DNA of 63,966 bases, filler included, from Sandaracinaceae bacterium (GTDB lineage Bacteria; Myxococcota_A; Polyangia; Polyangiales; JADJQN01), in NCBI GenBank assembly GCA_947483975.1. It is 3 parts of 3 records of this genome, joined end to end, with 100 filler letters (N's around TTAATTAATTAA, not from the genome) between each part and the next. Parts side by side here need not be neighbours in the genome. Positions count along the whole stretch, not along the records: positions 26,843 to 53,218 come from CANKOL010000028.1; 2 more parts are not named here. The stretch is one strand, 5' to 3'. Shown piece after piece: positions 26,743-53,318 of this stretch (the first letter of the stretch is position 1; each line of letters starts with the position of its first letter). The translations under genes and the position numbers were made by a program. The notes beneath the pieces were generated by a model. It made no database searches, was not told where the DNA came from, and saw only the letters and a list, made by a program, of their open reading frames with translations.

Positions 26743-26842
26743 NNNNNNNNNNNNNNNNNNNNNNNNNNNNNNNNNNNNNNNNNNNNTTAATTAATTAANN
26801 NNNNNNNNNNNNNNNNNNNNNNNNNNNNNNNNNNNNNNNNNN
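26743..26842. other. Artificial contig linker
   Basis: 44 N + TTAATTAATTAA (stops in all six frames) + 44 N. Confidence 0.99.
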
Positions 26843-38262: not shown

Positions 38263-38271
38263 CGCGGGCGC

Positions 38272-39078
38272 TCAGCGCACGAAGAGCGAGCGCGTGTAGT
38301 AGACGAGATCCCAGCTCTCGCTCTCGGTGATCGCGTCGTGATAGGAGGGCATCGGCGTGCCGTCGATGCCCGTGTGGAACGTGCGGTAGATGTCCTCGGG
38401 CGCCGAGCCGCCCTTCATCTTCCAGCCGCGCGTGAAGTCGAACGCGTAGACGCGCCGACCGTGGTTGTCGGTGAGCGTCGCCGCCGCCCGCCCATCGCCG
38501 CGCCCCCCGCTCCCGTGGCAGGTGCCGCACTGCATGCGCGCGTACACGTCACGACCGCGCGCGACGCTCGCGTCGGTCGGCGCAGGCGCCGACGGGATGA
38601 CGAGCGGCACGCCCGGCTCCTCCTCGGTGAAGCGCGGCGACAGCGACTTCAGGAACGCGACGAGCGCCCACGTCGTGCGGTCAGGCAGCCCCGACCAGCC
38701 GGGCATCGACGTGCCGGGCAGCCCGCGCCGCAGCGTGCGGTAGATGTCCCAGTCGGTCGGCAGCGCGCCGCTCTCCGTAGTGCGGAACATATACTCGCCC
38801 TCGGTCAGATCACGCGGCGCCGGCGACAGATAGCGCGCGTCCGGCCCATCGCCCTGCCCGCCCGCGCCGTGGCAGTCCGCGCAGCGCTCTGCGTAGGTGC
38901 TGCGCCCGAGTCGGAGGAGCGCGGGAGTCGTCGCATAGGGCGAGCGGGGAATCGCCACCTCGACGAGCGCGGGAGTCGGCGACGCGACTGGCATCGACTG
39001 CGCCCGCGCCAGCTCGCCGAGCGCGAGGGTGCCGAGACTCCCGACGAGCGCACAGAGCACGAGTATTCGTCGAGTCAC
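38272..39078 (-). CDS. Exported dihaem cytochrome c
   Basis: Signal peptide from GTG 39078 (GTGA overlap); CADCH and CGTCH; distal Met motifs GTSMP and GTPMP; internal duplication. Confidence 0.9.
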   Translation of the reverse strand: MTRRILVLCALVGSLGTLALGELARAQSMPVASPTPALVEVAIPRSPYATTPALLRLGRSTYAERCADCHGAGGQGDGPDARYLSPAPRDLTEGEYMFRTTESGALPTDWDIYRTLRRGLPGTSMPGWSGLPDRTTWALVAFLKSLSPRFTEEEPGVPLVIPSAPAPTDASVARGRDVYARMQCGTCHGSGGRGDGRAAATLTDNHGRRVYAFDFTRGWKMKGGSAPEDIYRTFHTGIDGTPMPSYHDAITESESWDLVYYTRSLFVR

Positions 39079-40277
39079 AGCGCGGTCTCCACGAACGCGG
39101 ACACGCGCGTCTCGTTCTTCAAGCCGGACGAAGCGCCGCCCTCGCCGAGCCACTGCAAATCGGCCGTTCCTTCGATGGAGAGTCGCAGGCTCGTGAGGAG
39201 CAGATAGCCGACGTGCAGCGTCGCGAGCCTGTGTCGCAGCGTCGCGTCGGGGCTCTCGACGGCGTCGTAGCGCGCGATGGCCGAGAGCTCGTCGGTCAGC
39301 GCCCAGAGGACCTCGGCGCGCACTCCGAAGTAGTGAATCGCCTCGCCCTCGCCGTGCGGGTCGCGGTGCAAGCCATAGATGCCCGCGGCGTAGAACAGGA
39401 GCCTCGACACCGAGAGTTCGGCGTCCGCGCCCGTCAGGATCAGGCGGTCGTCCCACTCGTGCTCGACGCCGCCCTCATCGACGCGCAGGCGCGCGATCGC
39501 GCCATAGCCGAAGAGCCCGAACGTCTGCCCGCCCATCGTGAACCCGGCGCGTCCGAGGAGCCCGGGAGCCCCTGCGCCGGTCTGATTTCGCTGACCGGGG
39601 GAGCCCTCGGCGAACGCGAGCTCATAGGAGATAGGGCCCCAGCGCGGGCGCCCTTGCAGCGAGATGCCGAGGTGTGTGCCCTCGAGCACGAAGGGATTGT
39701 CCCCGACGTGCACGGCGGCGAGCGGGTTTCCGACTCGCGTGATCGAGCGGTGTCCCGGGCGCTGAAAGCCAGTCATCAGGAGCTGTCCCGCGACGAGCGA
39801 CAGCGCACCGTGCGGCAGCAAGTTGTGGAAACCGAGCGTGAGAAAATGGAGGGCGGGAGTCGGCACGAGATCCGCCGAGAAGAGGAGCGAGACGTCCTCG
39901 TACAGGCTGCCTCCGCCGACGAGTCGCGCGTAAGGGACGCTCCCACCGAATTGGTGCGTGCCGGGCGAGACCTCCGTCCACTCACCGAGCAGGCGCGCGC
40001 GCACCGAGAGCGGCGGCGTCGCGAAGATCGCCGTGCGCTCGTCGAGCGTGCCGGGCTCGATCATCGCCGCCGCGCGCGCCGGATCCTCGGCGCCCTCGGG
40101 GAGCTGATAGCCATTCTGCCGAAAGCGGACTCCGTACGCGTTGAGGTACGGGAAGCTCCACGCGTGGCAGGTCCGACAGCTCGTGCGATAGCGGCGCGCG
40201 AAGGACGGATTGGCCCGCGCGCTCGACGCCCCGAAGAGCGTCGCGAGCACGACGAGCACGGCGATTAGGTGGCGCAT
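39075..40277 (-). CDS. Cyc2-like monohaem cytochrome-porin fusion
   Basis: Signal ending ARA, then NPSFARRYRTSCRTCHAWSFPYLNAYGVRFRQNGY; PPLS; amphipathic beta strands to the C-terminus. Confidence 0.8.
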   Translation of the reverse strand: MRHLIAVLVVLATLFGASSARANPSFARRYRTSCRTCHAWSFPYLNAYGVRFRQNGYQLPEGAEDPARAAAMIEPGTLDERTAIFATPPLSVRARLLGEWTEVSPGTHQFGGSVPYARLVGGGSLYEDVSLLFSADLVPTPALHFLTLGFHNLLPHGALSLVAGQLLMTGFQRPGHRSITRVGNPLAAVHVGDNPFVLEGTHLGISLQGRPRWGPISYELAFAEGSPGQRNQTGAGAPGLLGRAGFTMGGQTFGLFGYGAIARLRVDEGGVEHEWDDRLILTGADAELSVSRLLFYAAGIYGLHRDPHGEGEAIHYFGVRAEVLWALTDELSAIARYDAVESPDATLRHRLATLHVGYLLLTSLRLSIEGTADLQWLGEGGASSGLKNETRVSAFVETAL

Positions 40278-40804
40278 CAGTGCACGTGCCCGACGACGCC
40301 AGCGTCTGCGCTGCCGGAGGCTGCGACGGCGTCAGTGCCCGCCGCGCCGGTGAGCACGACGAGGGTCGAGGGACCGACCGCGCCGTGTCCATCGAGCGTC
40401 AGCATGGCCGCGCGGATCTTCTCGAAGGGGAGCGCGACGTTGACCTGCGCCACCTGAGCGAGCGCGACGCCGAGCGGGTTCGAGCCGATGTCCGCCGCGT
40501 GCACCCAGCCTCCGCCCGCGTCGGCGCGGCCGTCCGAGAGCCAGAGTCGATAGAACATATGCGGCGACGTCGGGGGCAGCGGGAGCCCGGCGAAGTGCGC
40601 GACGACGAGGTTGCTCGCGGGAGTCGCCTCGAAGGTGCCGGAGGCGCGCGACACCTCGAGCGCGTCGAGCGGCGGCGGCGTCAGCCCGGCGAAGTTGAGG
40701 CTCGCCGGCGGATGGAGCGTGAAGTGAACGCGCACGACCCCCGCAGGCTCGCCACATCCGACCATCACGAGGACGGCGAGCACCCCGACACTGAAGCTCC
40801 GCAT
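40277..40804 (-). CDS. Lipoprotein of unknown function, first gene of the cytochrome operon
   Basis: MRSFSVGVLAVLVMVGC lipobox; YRLWL; ends GHVH; TGATG overlap with the Cyc2-like gene. Confidence 0.65.
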   Translation of the reverse strand: MRSFSVGVLAVLVMVGCGEPAGVVRVHFTLHPPASLNFAGLTPPPLDALEVSRASGTFEATPASNLVVAHFAGLPLPPTSPHMFYRLWLSDGRADAGGGWVHAADIGSNPLGVALAQVAQVNVALPFEKIRAAMLTLDGHGAVGPSTLVVLTGAAGTDAVAASGSADAGVVGHVH

Positions 40805-40906
40805 GAAGGCCTTTGTGGGGAGTACCCCCGGTGGAACGTCGCCCACGCCGACACGCTACACGACCGGGGCCCCGCGGCGAAAGCGTCGAGCGCGCGCCGT
40901 CGCGCC

Positions 40907-42988
40907 TCAGGCAACGTCGAGCACCTGCCGGATCTTCGCGGCGAGGTCGTCCTTGGAGAAGGGCTTGTGCAGCAGGGACACCCCTGCTCCGAGCGCGCCC
41001 TGCGTGCCGAGGAAGTCGGCCGAGTAGCCCGACACGAACAGGCACTTCACGCGCGGGCGGCTGGACTCGATCTTCCTGGCGAGATCGCGCCCGTTCATCT
41101 CCGGCATGATCACGTCGGTCACGAGCAGATCGAGCTCGCCCGGGTGCTCTGCCGCGAGGCGCATCGCCTCGCTCGGCCGGCCCGCGGCGAGGACGCGATA
41201 GCCCATTTGCTCGAGCATTCGCTTGGTCAGCGCGAGGATGGCCGCCTCATCCTCGACGAGCAGGATCGTCTCTTGGCCGCGCGGCGCTGGTGCCGTCAGG
41301 CGGTCTGGCGGCTTCTGGTCGGTCCTCGGCGCTTGGCGGGGGAGGTAGACGTCGAAGACCGTCCCGCGCCCGGGCGCGCTGCGGACGTCGATGATGCCCT
41401 GGTTCTGCTGGACGATGCCGTAGACCGTCGCGAGGCCGAGGCCGGTCCCCTTGCCCGTCGCCTTCGTCGTGAAGAACGGCTCGAAGATCCGCTGCTGCGT
41501 GGCAGTGTCCATCCCCGCGCCGTCGTCAGCGACGGTCAGCCGCACATAGTCCCCGGGGACTGCGCCGACGCGCGCGGAGCAGTCGTCCGCGTCGAAGGTC
41601 CTGTGTCCCGTCTCGACGGTCAGCTTCCCGCCGGCGAGCATCGCGTCGCGCGCGTTGACGCACAAATTCGCGAGGATCTGGTCGATGTGCGACGGGTCGA
41701 CGTGCACCGGCCAGAGGCGCGCGGCGGGCCTCCACTCGAGGTCGAGGTCCTCACCGATCAGCCGCCGCAGCATCGAGAGCATCCCGGTGACGGTCGCGTT
41801 GAGATCGAGCAGCTTCGGGGCGACGGCCTCCTGTCGAGCGAACGTCAGCAGCTGCCGAGTGAGGTCCGCGGAGCGCTTGGCGGCGAGGCGGATCTCCTCG
41901 AGGTCCTGGTGCAACGGCGTGCTCGCGTGCACCTCCTCGAGCGCCAATTCGGCGTGCCCGAGGATCACGCTCAGCATGTTGTTGAAGTCGTGCGCGACGC
42001 CGCCCGCCAAGCGCCCCACGGACTCCAGCTTCCGCGCTTGCTCGAGCTGCAGCTGGAGCTTGGCGCGCTCGTCCTCCGCGCGCTTTCGCTCGGTGATGTC
42101 GCGGACGATGCCGGTGAAGAACCACCCGCCGGCGCTCGCCCATTTGGCCAGCGAGAGCTCGAGCGGGAACTCGCTCCCGTCCTTGCGGAGCCCATACAGC
42201 TCGACCACCCGCCCGAGCACATGGTCCGGGCCGCCGGCCGCGACGCGAGCGACTCCCGCACGATGCGGGTCGTGGAATCGCGAGGGCATCAGCAGCGTCA
42301 TCGGCTGCCCGAGGATCTCCGACTCCGCGTAGCCGAAGATCGCCTCCGCGCCGCGGTTCCAACCCACGAGTATCCCCGCGCTGTCGGAGGTCAGGAACGC
42401 GTCGTGCGCCGACTCGGTCATGGCCCGATTCCGCGCCTCACTCTGCGCCAGCGCGTACTCGACGCGCTTGTGGTCGGTGATGTCCGTCCAAGAGCCAATC
42501 ATCCCCGTCGGCTGGCCGTCGGCGTCGCGCAGCAAGCGCACCTGATCGAGCATCCAGCGGTAGGCGCCGTCGGCGCAGCGAAACCTGTATTCGTGGGTGA
42601 TCCGGTCGTGCACGAACAGCGGGCCGATCTCGGCGAAGACCCGCAGCGCGTCGTCGGGATGAAGGTGGCTCGCCCAGAAGCCCGGGTCTTCGATGAAGTC
42701 GCGCGCGGTGTAGCCTAGCTGCGCTAGCACCCCATCGGAGACGAACGTCGCGCCGAAGTCGCCGGACGCGCGACACGTGTAGGTCACGCCGGGCGCGGCG
42801 TTGACCAGGAAGGCGAGGTGCTCGGCCGTCTCGCGCAGCGCTCGCTCTGCCTGCGTGCGCGCGACGACGTCGTCGGGTTCTTGACCTTGTGCGTGCAGCG
42901 CCTGCCTCAGCGCCGCGATCTCTGCGCGAGCGTCCGCAAGCTCAGCGGCGAGCCGAGCGACAGTCTCCTCGCTCTCAGTCTTGGGCAT
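40907..42988 (-). CDS. Cytoplasmic hybrid histidine kinase (PAS-PAS-HisKA-HATPase-REC)
   Basis: PAS3 (LHPDD, YRW), FixL-like PAS (LLMP...H...[10 protein letters not shown]), [40 protein letters not shown]. Confidence 0.93.
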
Positions 42989-43082
42989 TTCCGTGCGCTC
43001 CGGGCCGACCCACGGGGTCGACGCGCTCCTCGGACGGGTCGAACGGCCGCGCTCCGCCGCGCTGAAGGAGGCCGCCTGCGCC

Positions 43083-43559
43083 CTAGCGAAACAGCGCCCG
43101 CCCGCGCGCGCTGCAGGGCCCTGCGCAGCGCTGCTGTCCTGGCTTGGGACGCTCGGCATAGGAGTAGTCGAGCCCCGCCGAGGACAGCGCGCCGCGCAGG
43201 TGCTGGTCAGTCGTCCACTGGCATCCATCGGAGTAGTCGAACTCGGTGTTGAGGACGAGGTCGAGACTCCCGCCGTCGAGACGGCCGATGAACATCGCCT
43301 GTCCGAACACCGCCTTGACCCAGCCGTTCCCGTCGCAGGGATAGCGGAGCGTGCCGGGCGTCTGCGTCACGCGCTCGTCGATGAAGCAGCCCTCGGCGCC
43401 CTCCGTGCGCACGACGACGAGCTGCTTCTGGCAGATGCGCTCGGCGCCCGTCGGGGGCGGAAACGCCGGCAAGTGAGGGGGCACTTCGCGCACCTCTGCG
43501 TGCGCAGCCGCCGCACCGAGCGCGACGGCGAGCGTGAAGAGCGCGACCGCGCGCCTCAT
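43083..43559 (-). CDS. Small secreted Cys-containing protein
   Basis: Signal ending AHA; six Cys; 4-bp overlap with the upstream VWA gene. Confidence 0.65.
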
Positions 43560-45827: not shown

Positions 45828-47870
45828 GTGACGCTCGAGCTTCCCCTCGCCGTACGCAAGCTGCTCGCCACTCATCAGCTCGGGGTCGATCGCCCGCCGA
45901 CACCGGAGCGCTGGGGGGAGTTCCTCAGCGACCTCGCCGAGATGCCGGACGTCGCGGCGGGCGCCTCCGAGAACGGGCTCGAGCGCGCGCGCCTCGGCGC
46001 CCTGCTCGAGAGCCTGAGCGCGGGCGTGATCGTCGAGGACCGCGAGCGGCGGACCGTGCTCGTCAACCAGCCGTTCTGTGACCTCTTCAAGGTCCCCGCG
46101 CCTCCCACGGCGCTCGTCGGGATGGACTGCGCGGTCGCCGCGCTGAGCGCGGCAGGGATGACCGCCGACGCGGGCGCGTTCATCGCGCGCATCGACGCGC
46201 TGCTCGCCGCCGGCGTTCCCTGCCCGACGGAGACCATCTCGTTCACCGACGGGCGGACGCTCGATCGCAGCTACGCGCCGGTCCGCGTCGCCGGGGAATT
46301 CGCGGGCCATATCTGGCTCTACCGCGACATCACCGAGCAGACGCGGCACGAGCAGGAGCTGCGCGCGGCGAGCGAAGAGGCCGAGCGCGCGAGCCGCGCG
46401 AAGGACGAATTCCTCGCCTCGATGAGCCACGAGCTGCGCTCCCCGCTGACGAGCATCCTCGGCCTCACGGAGCTGCTCCTCGAGCAGGCGCGGGCGGACG
46501 ATCGGCAGGCGCTCCGCGTGATCTTGCAGTCGGGCACGACGCTCCTCGCGCTGCTCAACGAGCTGCTCGATCTCTCGAAGCTGCGCGCGGGGAAGTTCAC
46601 GCTCGTCGAGGAGGAGGTCGACGTCCGCGTGGTCGTGCAGGAGACCGTCTCCGCGCTGGCGGTGCACGCGCGGCGGAAGAACCTCAGCCTCGAGACGCGC
46701 CTCTCGCCCGACCTGCGGAAGGCCGTGCGCGGCGACAGCCTGCGGCTGCGGCAGGTGCTGACGAACCTCGTCGACAACGCGATCAAGTTCACCGCGCAGG
46801 GCGCCGTCATCGTCACGGTGGACGTCGATCAGCCGGGGCAGGTGCGCTTTCAGGTTCGCGACGACGGGCCGGGGCTCGACGCAGAGCAGCAGACGCGGCT
46901 GTTCCGGAGCTTCGAGCGCCTCGACACGGACTGGTCCCGGGCCGAGCGCGGCACCGGGCTCGGGCTGTCGATCGCCCAAGAGCTCGTCACGAAGATGGGC
47001 GGCACCATCCAGGTCGAGTCAAAGGTCGGCGCTGGCACGACGTTCAGCTTCTCGATCCCGATGGCGCCCGCCGCGAGCGCGGTGCCCGAGCCTCGACCGT
47101 CCCGCCCGGCGCCGAGCGCCAACGCTCACCCGCGCCTCCGCGTGCTCGTCGCGGAGGACGACGCGGCGAGCCGGCTCTTCCTCGAGAAGGCGCTCGAGCG
47201 GCTCGGGCATGACGTGCAGGTCGTCGGAGACGGGCAAGCCGTGCTCGACCTGCTCAGCCTGGGGCAGGCGTTCGACGCCATCCTGATGGACGTTCAGATG
47301 CCGGTGCTCGACGGGCTCGCGACGACCCGCGCCGTGCGACGGCTCGAGGGCGAGGGCGCGCACACGGCGATCCTCGCGCTGACGGCGAACGTGATGCGCG
47401 GGGACCGTGAGCGCTGCCTCGAGGCGGGCGTGGACGCGCACGTGCCGAAGCCCGTCTCGCTCGCTGCGCTCGACGCGATCCTCGCGCAGGTGACGGGCAC
47501 CCGCCGCGCCGCGCGCGCCCGTCGCGCGTTGCCGGACGACGACGTGCCGACGCTCGACCCGGAGCGAATCGAGGTGCTGCGGGAGCTCGGCGACGACGTC
47601 GTCAAGGGGCTCGTGCGGGACTACGAGGGCACGCTGGCGAGCAGCGTGGACGCGCTCGCGACGGCGCTCCGCGAGCGGCAGTGGAGCGACGCGCAGCGGC
47701 TCGCGCACAAGCTGCGCGGCTCGAGCCAGACGCTCGGCGCTGCGCGGCTCGCGGCGCTGACGCTGCACATCGAGCAGGCGATCGCCGAGAAGACCGCGAG
47801 CCCCGAACAGCTCGCCGACGAGCTCCAGGAGACGGCGTTCGAGACCCGCGTCGCGCTCCGCGCGCTCTGA
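45828..47870 (+). CDS. Unorthodox hybrid histidine kinase (PAS-HisKA-HATPase-REC-HPt)
   Basis: [43 protein letters not shown], HPt [11 protein letters not shown] 45828 chosen. Confidence 0.92.
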
Positions 47871-53218: not shown

Positions 53219-53318
53219 NNNNNNNNNNNNNNNNNNNNNNNNNNNNNNNNNNNNNNNNNNNNTTAATTAATTAANNNNNNNNNNNNNNNNNNNNNNNNNN
53301 NNNNNNNNNNNNNNNNNN
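53219..53318. other. Artificial contig linker
   Basis: 44 N + TTAATTAATTAA + 44 N. Confidence 0.99.

Follow-up and report, generated by a model that had tools for sequence, protein, structure and literature searches.

A Cyc2-family cytochrome-porin co-inherited with a dihaem cytochrome c and a His-tailed lipoprotein: a candidate accessory electron conduit in a lake myxobacterium

Introduction

The gene cyc2 is the standard marker of microbial iron oxidation, yet most members of its clusters 2 and 3 lack a settled function. A three-gene set (hereafter the trio) in a Sandaracinaceae bacterium of the Myxococcota (GenBank assembly GCA_947483975.1) raises the question of what such a gene does in a heterotroph, and on which metal. 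The trio encodes a lipoprotein, a porin with a Cyc2-type N-terminus and a dihaem cytochrome c, and lies at positions 38272–40804, on the minus strand, of the 63,966-nucleotide stretch of DNA analysed here (hereafter the window). It is a self-contained 2.5-kb unit with named residues (H144, H176 and H304 of the porin, H173 and H175 of the lipoprotein), and lets one ask three things: can copper serve as the substrate of a Cyc2, is a lipoprotein subunit required, and do heterotrophic myxobacteria of lakes obtain electrons from metals in solution?

An initial annotation had read the trio as a Cyc2-like outer-membrane electron conduit, by analogy with Acidithiobacillus, and had stressed how surprising this was for the host lineage. 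The family assignment and the conduit-like anatomy are borne out below, the surprise is not. That reading also overlooked the resemblance of the lipoprotein fold to Cu,Zn superoxide dismutase (SOD) and its copper chaperone CCS, the histidines that set the barrel of this clade apart, the copper islands in which relatives of the trio lie, and the fact that the cassette is an indel.

The porin is a member of the Cyc2 family

The three genes are translationally coupled, with the TGATG and GTGA overlaps initially described. The middle gene (39075–40277, minus strand) encodes a fused monohaem cytochrome c-porin of 400 amino acids, and is confirmed as a member of the Cyc2 family. Cyc2 is defined by a signal peptide, the motif AxPxFAR[Q/K][T/Y], a CxxCH, a PxL four residues on, a 16-strand barrel similar to that of OprO and OprP, and a length above 365 amino acids (PMC8406198). 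The porin has all of these features save for an arginine at the Q/K position (ANPSFARRY), a single conservative change from the strict pattern. The signature spans residues 22–38 (40164–40214, minus strand), from ANPSFARRY to CRTCH, with PYL four residues on, and the longer string reported initially, PSFARRY-RTS-CRTCH-AWSF-PYL-NAY-G-VR-F-RQN-GY, is exact. It probably does not open the mature chain as had been supposed: judged by eye, the signal peptide would end at an A-R-A site, leaving N-P-S-F as the first residues.

The single CxxCH lies at the N-terminus, and its two cysteines and its histidine are invariant in 144 aligned homologues, so the motif is not there by chance. The spacing between the FAR motif and CxxCH is identical in all 118 parsed rows, and PxL follows CxxCH at four residues (CH-AWSF-PYL) in all 34 parsed rows of the porin's own clade, described below. 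Within these 34 rows, the FAR motif ends in RY (17), RT (8), KY (6), QT, QY or RH (one each).

A structural model built from the 144 sequences possesses the predicted architecture, with a small helical haem domain and a barrel (predicted local distance difference test score, pLDDT, 92.4; predicted template modelling score 0.89). DSSP assigns 17 strand elements, which I count as 16 strands by taking two of them for a single bulged one. The best structural match among 48,161 chains is OprP (Z 24.9, root-mean-square deviation (RMSD) 3.9, 305 residues aligned), and the family profile matches OprO (E 8e-5). Both matches would suit an ordinary anion or solute porin, of the OprP/OprO or ExtI type, with an incidental CxxCH. 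This reading is nonetheless very hard to sustain, as Cyc2 itself has been modelled on OprP/OprO (PMC8406198), CxxCH is invariant together with the Cyc2 motifs that surround it, the gene is inherited along with that of a cytochrome, and NCBIfam offers no matching porin model. Searches of Pfam, NCBIfam and PDB sequences gave no match to the porin, and 38 of the 144 aligned porins gave nothing meaningful in NCBIfam; neither sequence nor profile searches turned up a solved Cyc2 structure. The selenite porin ExtI was considered in its own right and rejected, with no NCBIfam match, no ext-like neighbours, and no haem motif mentioned for ExtI in the available text of PMC5877670.

The wider family is large: at E up to 0.001, a profile search returned 4,691 cluster representatives. 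In the phylum, 48 of 401 sampled genomes encode a Cyc2-type N-terminus, and only four of these, besides the host, match over most of the length. Such genes are thus common in the phylum, and a published Cyc2 tree already includes deltaproteobacterial/Myxococcota sequences (PMC12442345), which makes the host lineage unsurprising.

In a tree of 97 sequences, the porin falls within a 36-row clade (hereafter the clade) with a Shimodaira–Hasegawa-like approximate likelihood ratio test (SH-aLRT) support of 99; this was a quick IQ-TREE search with SH-aLRT as its only support, and L034, L042, L150 and the reference Cyc2 sequences were left out. Tree neighbours of the porin include Acidobacteriota, and Cyt572 was reported near Acidobacteriota sequences in a 2023 network survey. 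Two plasmid-borne Cyc2s of the FARQT type, followed by or near c-type cytochromes, form a long separate branch, and align with the porin over the haem domain only; a plasmid search using a distant homologue gave no match. The N-terminus of Cyt572, a characterised cluster 3 member, is of the FARKY type (PMC13741234). From this FAR[KR]Y motif, and from the distance to FARQT types, the porin likely belongs to Cyc2 cluster 3. For the same reasons, and because cluster 3 is the one of least certain function, the analogy with Acidithiobacillus is loose.

Four barrel histidines are specific to the clade, H144 (31 of 35 rows), H151 (33 of 35), H176 and H304 (34 of 35 each), and the corresponding columns in the 109 non-clade rows are mostly Glu, Asn, mixed and Asp, respectively. 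D277 and E287 are also conserved in the clade. By strand order, H144 and H304 would be located at the outer mouth of the barrel and H176 in an infolded loop, a placement that derives from secondary structure.

The trio is co-inherited as a module

Conservation of the trio, which had been put forward as a point to check, is observed: both the lipoprotein and the dihaem cytochrome are present in 13 of 14 clade loci of at least 10 kb, the fourteenth ending inside the porin gene. Among control loci, the lipoprotein profile finds one weak match in 20 other Myxococcota Cyc2 loci and none in 36 loci mostly from other phyla, while the dihaem cytochrome is found in 0 of the 20 and 2 of the 36. The gene order is lipoprotein-porin-dihaem in the host and two close relatives, and porin-lipoprotein-dihaem in the 11 others. 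The three gene trees are congruent over the 14 loci (Mantel rho 0.89, 0.75 and 0.58; permutation p 2e-4), as would be expected for any long-linked genes, and with kin that are not independent. The trio is a conserved module co-inherited with the clade porin. At one clade locus (L034:3314-9495, in genome G152), the porin gene is split by insertion-sequence genes, with the lipoprotein and cytochrome genes intact.

The cassette is rare and patchy. The lipoprotein profile gives six strong matches in the 401 genomes of the phylum, all beside a clade porin, five of these having been used to build the profile; in further samples, it is matched in 5 of 401 genomes of the class and 4 of 154 of another order. 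The trio is flanked by genes for a biotin carboxylase and a PAS hybrid histidine kinase. In G400, a genome of the same genus (94% complete), synteny breaks off with the stop codon of the biotin carboxylase gene and is restored near 43113, with a matching site of ∼130 bp that contains neither the trio nor the PAS kinase. The indel block (approximate boundaries 38263–43050, no strand) comprises the trio and this upstream kinase gene (40907–43228, minus strand), which I do not count in the module because it is not conserved beside the trio elsewhere. A second hybrid histidine kinase gene (45828–47870) is, like the first, absent from the syntenic region of G400. Among the metagenome contigs in the matches listed, none carries an empty-site allele at the trio joints. 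The GC content at third codon positions of the trio (0.87–0.90) is only at the 5th–25th percentile of the genome, which is weak evidence of foreign origin.

The window joins three contigs (C27, C28 and C165) with N spacers at 26743–26842 and 53219–53318, so that apparent genes spanning the joins are artefacts; the trio lies well inside the middle contig (CANKOL010000028.1). Metagenome contigs from two other studies, ∼94% alike, span the trio without an internal gap (X11 as two adjoining pieces, X15 as one). At least 10 sequencing runs hold half or more of the sampled words of host DNA, all labelled as lake or freshwater metagenomes; four of these 10 are possibly the source itself, and the remaining six belong to three studies, with a possible source also present in two of these. 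No RNA run holding host DNA words is among the matches listed. The closest relatives, by record titles and tree labels, are Myxococcota. Relative to a 79%-identical homologue, the ratio of nonsynonymous to synonymous substitution rates (dN/dS) is 0.21 for the porin, 0.28 for the dihaem cytochrome and 0.75 for the lipoprotein, as rough Nei-Gojobori estimates on GC-rich genes. No sigma70 promoter or meaningful terminator was found at the trio. A short G/C inverted repeat around GTAC (40814–40832) is located just 5′ of the lipoprotein start, and is not seen upstream in the two closest relatives.

The dihaem cytochrome and the direction of electron flow

The last gene of the trio (38272–39078, minus strand) encodes an exported dihaem cytochrome c of 268 amino acids, with two class I domains. 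The two CxxCH motifs (CADCH, residues 66–70, and CGTCH, residues 184–188) and the motifs GTSMP and GTPMP are present as initially listed, and M125 and M243, one in each domain, are invariant in 14 loci, which would imply His/Met haems. PF00034 and PF13442 each match two stretches. Chain B of PDB entry 6H5L aligns over residues 56–265 (E 1e-52), including both CxxCH and both Met motifs, and this full-length homology places the protein among class I dihaem cytochromes c of the 6H5L_B type. The protein thus belongs, as had been proposed, to a family other than cytochrome c4; its similarity to the cytochrome 579 model (E 4e-13) is below the cut-off. I take 6H5L chain B to be Kuenenia Kustc0457, partner of the reductive hydroxylamine oxidoreductase (HAO) Kustc0458. 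Kustc0457 is described as a dihaem electron-transfer subunit, in text that gives no PDB code (PMC8042395). The family is that of a general carrier, found also beside a different monohaem porin type (L036), and it therefore fixes neither direction nor substrate. At a Gemmatimonadota locus (L055:5562-16422), a Cyc2-like gene and the same dihaem family occur with sulfocyanin-like and cbb3-like oxidase genes, in a rus-like layout.

His/Met dihaem carriers are usually of high potential, so that two such haems would suggest, from general cytochrome c chemistry, an inward flow of electrons. The opposite flow is also conceivable, with the dihaem cytochrome feeding the porin haem to reduce an extracellular acceptor, such as chelated Fe(III) or humic quinones, either to balance redox or to take up metal reductively. 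A potential of −130 mV is given for one Cyc2 (PMC13692758), so the family does not tell the direction; the A. ferrooxidans chain has been described as reversible (10.1101/2021.03.22.436458), and the host has multihaem cytochromes and an MtrAB-like cluster. The carrier type, and the fact that no quinol dehydrogenase gene is conserved beside the trio, nevertheless make an outward conduit improbable.

The MtrAB-like porin-multihaem cluster (L151:3699-9854, on contig C3) consists of three 8–9-haem cytochromes around an unannotated 409-aa gene, and proteins with 10 haems (C64, C320) and 18 haems (C100) are also encoded by the host. It further possesses a second, different monohaem porin-like gene (PxFAAR...CxxCHxNP; L150:3980-17516, on C11), a weak match to the Cyc2 profile, whose neighbours are a cupredoxin, a NirJ-like radical SAM gene, several cytochromes and a cytochrome bd-like subunit I. 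A third weak match to this profile (L163, C79:2154-5380; E 0.02, 449-aa frame) lies between trihaem and monohaem genes. Elsewhere, a Cyc2-like protein (P0103) carries ∼110 extra N-terminal residues that look cupredoxin-like by eye and match nothing in Pfam.

For inward flow, possible acceptors are encoded in the host genome, with aa3 and cbb3 oxidases over cut-off on contigs other than that of the trio, a NosZ domain, and NorB/NorC-like and ACIII-like clusters; CcmF is also present. Suitable oxidases and Cyc2 family membership could indicate an iron-oxidising lithoautotroph that gains most of its energy by this route, as Acidithiobacillus or Zetaproteobacteria do. I consider this most improbable, as RuBisCO and acetyl-CoA synthase gave no match in the host genome (81% complete, so not proof), the cassette is missing from G400, and its lipoprotein marker is scarce in the class. 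A search for ATP-citrate lyase was set aside, the query having matched no control genome.

The lipoprotein has a SOD-like fold and an invariant histidine tail

The first gene of the trio (40277–40804, minus strand) encodes a lipoprotein of 175 amino acids, with a lipobox cysteine at position 17 and the C-terminal sequence GHVH (codons at 40280–40291, minus strand), a candidate metal-binding or haem-ligating motif. It is indeed a dedicated partner, as initially suggested. The lipobox cysteine and the terminal HxH are invariant in 17 of 17 aligned members, where the only invariant columns are this Cys, a Gly, Leu, Pro, Arg and Gly, and the two tail histidines. Outside these motifs the protein evolves fast (dN/dS 0.64–0.75), and many members carry a second GHxH within an acidic loop.

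No Pfam or NCBIfam match, and no SOD match by sequence, was obtained for the lipoprotein. Its model (pLDDT 84.6; residues 143–159 of the mature chain are below 50, a disordered tail) is predicted to adopt the Greek-key beta-barrel topology of the Cu,Zn-SOD-like fold, which includes CCS domain 2. In a structure search the top 15 rows are all Cu,Zn-SOD or CCS (Z 10.3–7.8, the next row at 6.6); the best match has Z 10.3 and RMSD 2.5 over 105 residues, the CCS entries have Z 8.8–9.8, and identity is 11–18%. Foldseek agrees on the fold, although with every E above 0.01. A Cu,Zn-SOD enzyme was rejected, since the folded domain contains no invariant His or Asp and the metal site is therefore not kept.

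The beta-sandwich also resembles RskA_C, Atlas models of which match at TM 0.61; by sequence, none of 10 lipoprotein members matches RskA_C (PF10099). In anti-sigma factors, RskA_C domains serve as the sensory part. The trio might accordingly form a channel that is gated by haem or used for sensing, or else a module that protects the envelope, its haem reading out or buffering the redox state outside the cell with no net metabolic current. Such a role would fit this fold, the predicted plugging of an OprP-like pore by the haem domain, and the sensor kinases that adjoin many clade loci, the host's included. A dedicated, co-inherited soluble dihaem carrier fits electron transfer better; moreover, the kinase at the host locus is of another type than those of its relatives, and the lipoprotein has no membrane-spanning signalling part. 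I regard it as improbable, slightly more so than outward flow.

Co-folding of porin, haem and lipoprotein, which had been proposed initially, gave a score of 0.55 against 0.01 for the best control, with runs sharing at least 53% of contacts and a partner pLDDT of at least 75. Of 157 solved pairs in a benchmark, 116 reached the mark, as did 2 of 215 mismatches; among these, scores no higher than 0.60 belong to only 18 solved pairs and to both mismatches, and a prediction in this range is more often wrong than right unless the pairing was likely beforehand. The result lends weak support to binding of the lipoprotein to the porin. In genome G300, a distant tandem homologue of the lipoprotein ending in GHLH (L213:8401-9180; hhalign probability 93.5%, E 2e-7) is encoded directly upstream of a non-clade Cyc2, and scores 26 bits against RskA_C, under the 29.4 cut-off. 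Judging by homology, this would be a second, independent lipoprotein-Cyc2 pairing. It also weakens the case for a lipoprotein confined to the clade.

Copper genes surround the trio in several relatives

The SOD-like fold with its histidine tail, and the barrel histidines, raise the possibility of a copper-handling device. Here the barrel histidines and the HxH would bind copper at the outer membrane, and the haem chain would either oxidise toxic Cu(I), with electrons moving inward, or reduce Cu(II) for uptake; the lipoprotein might act, by analogy, like CCS, as a SOD-like domain with a flexible metal-binding tail. The GHLH homologue beside a non-clade Cyc2 points the same way, as does the setting of several relatives. 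Core copper/heavy-metal transport genes occur at 6 of 14 clade loci; the phylum controls have them at 2 of 20 loci and the remaining set at 1 of 36 (6/14 versus 2/20: Fisher p 0.04, overstated by kinship), with marker queries drawn from the subfamily loci themselves. Both P-type ATPases that neighbour the trio in relatives exceed the copper-ATPase cut-off. In G152 and G272 the trio lies amid CusBA and heavy-metal genes, with CopA also in G272, and in G699, a distant member that entered no profile build, a DUF1775 gene precedes it on the same strand. I take DUF1775 to be YcnI-like, and hence copper-linked. Sigma54 two-component systems with His-rich sensors adjoin 6 of 14 clade loci, recalling the curA operon of M. 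xanthus.

Several observations temper this interpretation. No copper transporter or copper sensor is found within 20 kb of the trio here, nor are copper genes near the trio of the two closest relatives. Four of the six copper-linked loci form one subclade of the main tree (support 94), and L034 joins it by gene-tree comparison, L042 not being placed; as the placeable loci fall together, the linkage amounts to about one event, and metal islands collect unrelated genes. Of 16 clade regions, 7 have a sigma54 box (scoring 9 or 10 of 10) upstream, none of them in the host branch, and no such box lies upstream of the trio here; 6 of 16 parsed controls have one too. Cupredoxins serve as carriers in other Myxococcota Cyc2 operons, and copper proteins and sigma54 control near cyc2 are therefore general. 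The fold is shared with RskA_C domains and does not by itself reveal a function, and the position of the histidines in the pore follows from secondary structure. Copper handling is thus possible, but doubtful.

Two related ideas were dropped. One was that the trio takes the place of a multicopper oxidase in copper islands, given up since the G272 island has its own; likewise, a "wide" copper count (9 of 14 versus 2 of 20) was abandoned because its cupredoxin queries missed cupredoxins beside control Cyc2s.

The copper-island branch and two control loci also encode an unnamed, helical lipoprotein with several conserved cysteines and an abundance of His, Met and acidic residues (L033:8594-9070, L037:8246-8773, L042:9422-9928, L032:8357-8842, L093:9253-9747). 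The L037 record is titled Enterobacterales, yet is GC-rich and groups with Myxococcota, and is probably mislabelled. In L195-L214, the gene that regularly comes next after the Cyc2 gene of other Myxococcota encodes a cupredoxin with a carboxypeptidase-regulatory-like domain, and a Rieske/azurin-like gene comes after that, often with a sigma54 box; this set is a second conserved Cyc2 module in Myxococcota. At three related loci (L039:289-6464, L040:2708-8904, L094:1-5741) the trio adjoins, back to back, an operon of the DMSO-reductase type II (Nar/Nxr-like), an adjacency consistent with coupling to nitrogen respiration.

A proposed function for the trio

What, then, might the trio do? I tentatively favour an accessory inward conduit that oxidises Fe(II) or a similar donor, as a mobile, three-subunit device for electron uptake at the outer membrane. 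The barrel would admit a dissolved reduced metal ion, Fe(II) by family precedent and possibly Mn(II), to the single c-type haem at its periplasmic mouth; fold and motif come from model and alignment, and haem attachment and substrate are inferred. The electron would then pass to the co-translated periplasmic dihaem cytochrome, and onward to an aa3 or cbb3 oxidase, NO reductase or N2O reductase, whose genes are present in the host. The lipoprotein may dock on the porin, its HxH tail capturing or handing over metal, or providing the sixth ligand of the haem. Predicted models of Cyc2, Cyt572 and Cyc2PV-1 show one axial haem His (PMC13741234), and electron paramagnetic resonance of another Cyc2 shows two haem ligands (PMC13692758). 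The gain would be supplementary energy for a heterotroph, and not lithoautotrophy. Those Cyc2-family proteins that have been assayed, which come from all three clusters, oxidise Fe(II) (PMC8406198; PMC13692758), and Cyt579 receives electrons from the cluster 3 Cyt572 in Leptospirillum (PMC13741234).

A number of points weigh against an Fe(II) conduit. Many organisms that are not iron oxidisers, or not known as such, carry cyc2 (PMC8406198, PMC5566968, PMC7029218, 10.1101/2024.12.25.630300), and the function of cluster 3 has been called the most uncertain among Cyc2 clusters (PMC8406198). The barrel is not strongly acidic (37 Asp and Glu versus 30 Lys and Arg), and the exchange of Glu and Asp for His at positions 144 and 304 would fit softer metals better than iron. 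Relatives of the trio are often found in copper islands. The low potential of one Cyc2, the range in which the co-fold score falls, and the ordinary explanation for congruent gene trees add to these.

There is also a bolder form of the copper hypothesis, a haem-based outer-membrane copper oxidoreductase, in which pore carboxylates were exchanged for His and a CCS-like lipoprotein was recruited, with the HxH delivering copper or ligating the haem in trans. I regard it as somewhat less probable than copper handling in general. If true, this would be the first case of a Cyc2 that acts on copper and of one with a lipoprotein subunit dedicated to it, and metal-homeostasis genes would underlie many of the "iron oxidation" calls made from cluster 3 in metagenomes.

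Comparison with known systems

In the literature covered, which left most subscription journals and supplements outside the search, I found no account of the trio, of a Cyc2 lipoprotein subunit or of a link between Cyc2 and copper, and the word "lipoprotein" does not appear in the available portions of a 2026 review of iron-oxidation proteins (PMC13741234) and of the 2023 network survey. A metagenome-assembled genome of the Polyangiaceae with unspecified iron-oxidation genes has been reported (PMC13055281).

The closest counterparts of the porin are found in Cyc2 cluster 3, which includes the Leptospirillum Cyt572/Cyt579 pair and homologues in Nitrospira and Ca. Manganitrophus (10.1101/2024.12.25.630300). 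A signal peptide, a motif of the PxFAR-[KR]Y type, a single CxxCH, PxL and the 16-strand barrel are common to these and to the porin. Cyt572 is longer (570 versus 400 amino acids), and the porin differs by the arginine at the Q/K position and by its barrel histidines. The dihaem partner shows a weak likeness to the cytochrome 579 model, but its tandem dihaem architecture and the dedicated SOD-fold HxH lipoprotein set the trio apart.

The A. ferrooxidans rus operon (cluster 2 Cyc2, Cyc1, Cup, rusticyanin and aa3 oxidase) resembles the trio in combining an outer-membrane monohaem porin and a periplasmic dihaem cytochrome in one operon. In contrast, the dihaem cytochrome of the trio is not a cytochrome c4, the cassette contains no oxidase or rusticyanin gene, and no carbon-fixation marker was found; the rus-type association of cyc2 with cytochrome c4, cupredoxin and terminal oxidase genes is not seen at the host locus. 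Other Myxococcota Cyc2 operons share the N-terminal motif, but form a separate clade, with the cupredoxin and Rieske/azurin-like genes in place of the dihaem gene. The partner of Kuenenia Kustc0457 is an HAO, that of the dihaem cytochrome here a porin-cytochrome.

The M. xanthus curA operon is a sigma54-controlled copper cluster with CorSR, CopA, His-rich proteins and a PF13442 cytochrome c (PMC3707914). It resembles the setting of several relatives of the trio, but no porin-cytochrome is listed for it in the available text, and the host locus is without such neighbours.

Lastly, CCS combines a SOD-like domain with a tail that carries a copper motif. The lipoprotein shares the Greek-key beta-sandwich of CCS and SOD1 in its predicted structure, but does not keep the SOD metal site, its conserved histidine pair being located in the tail predicted to be disordered.

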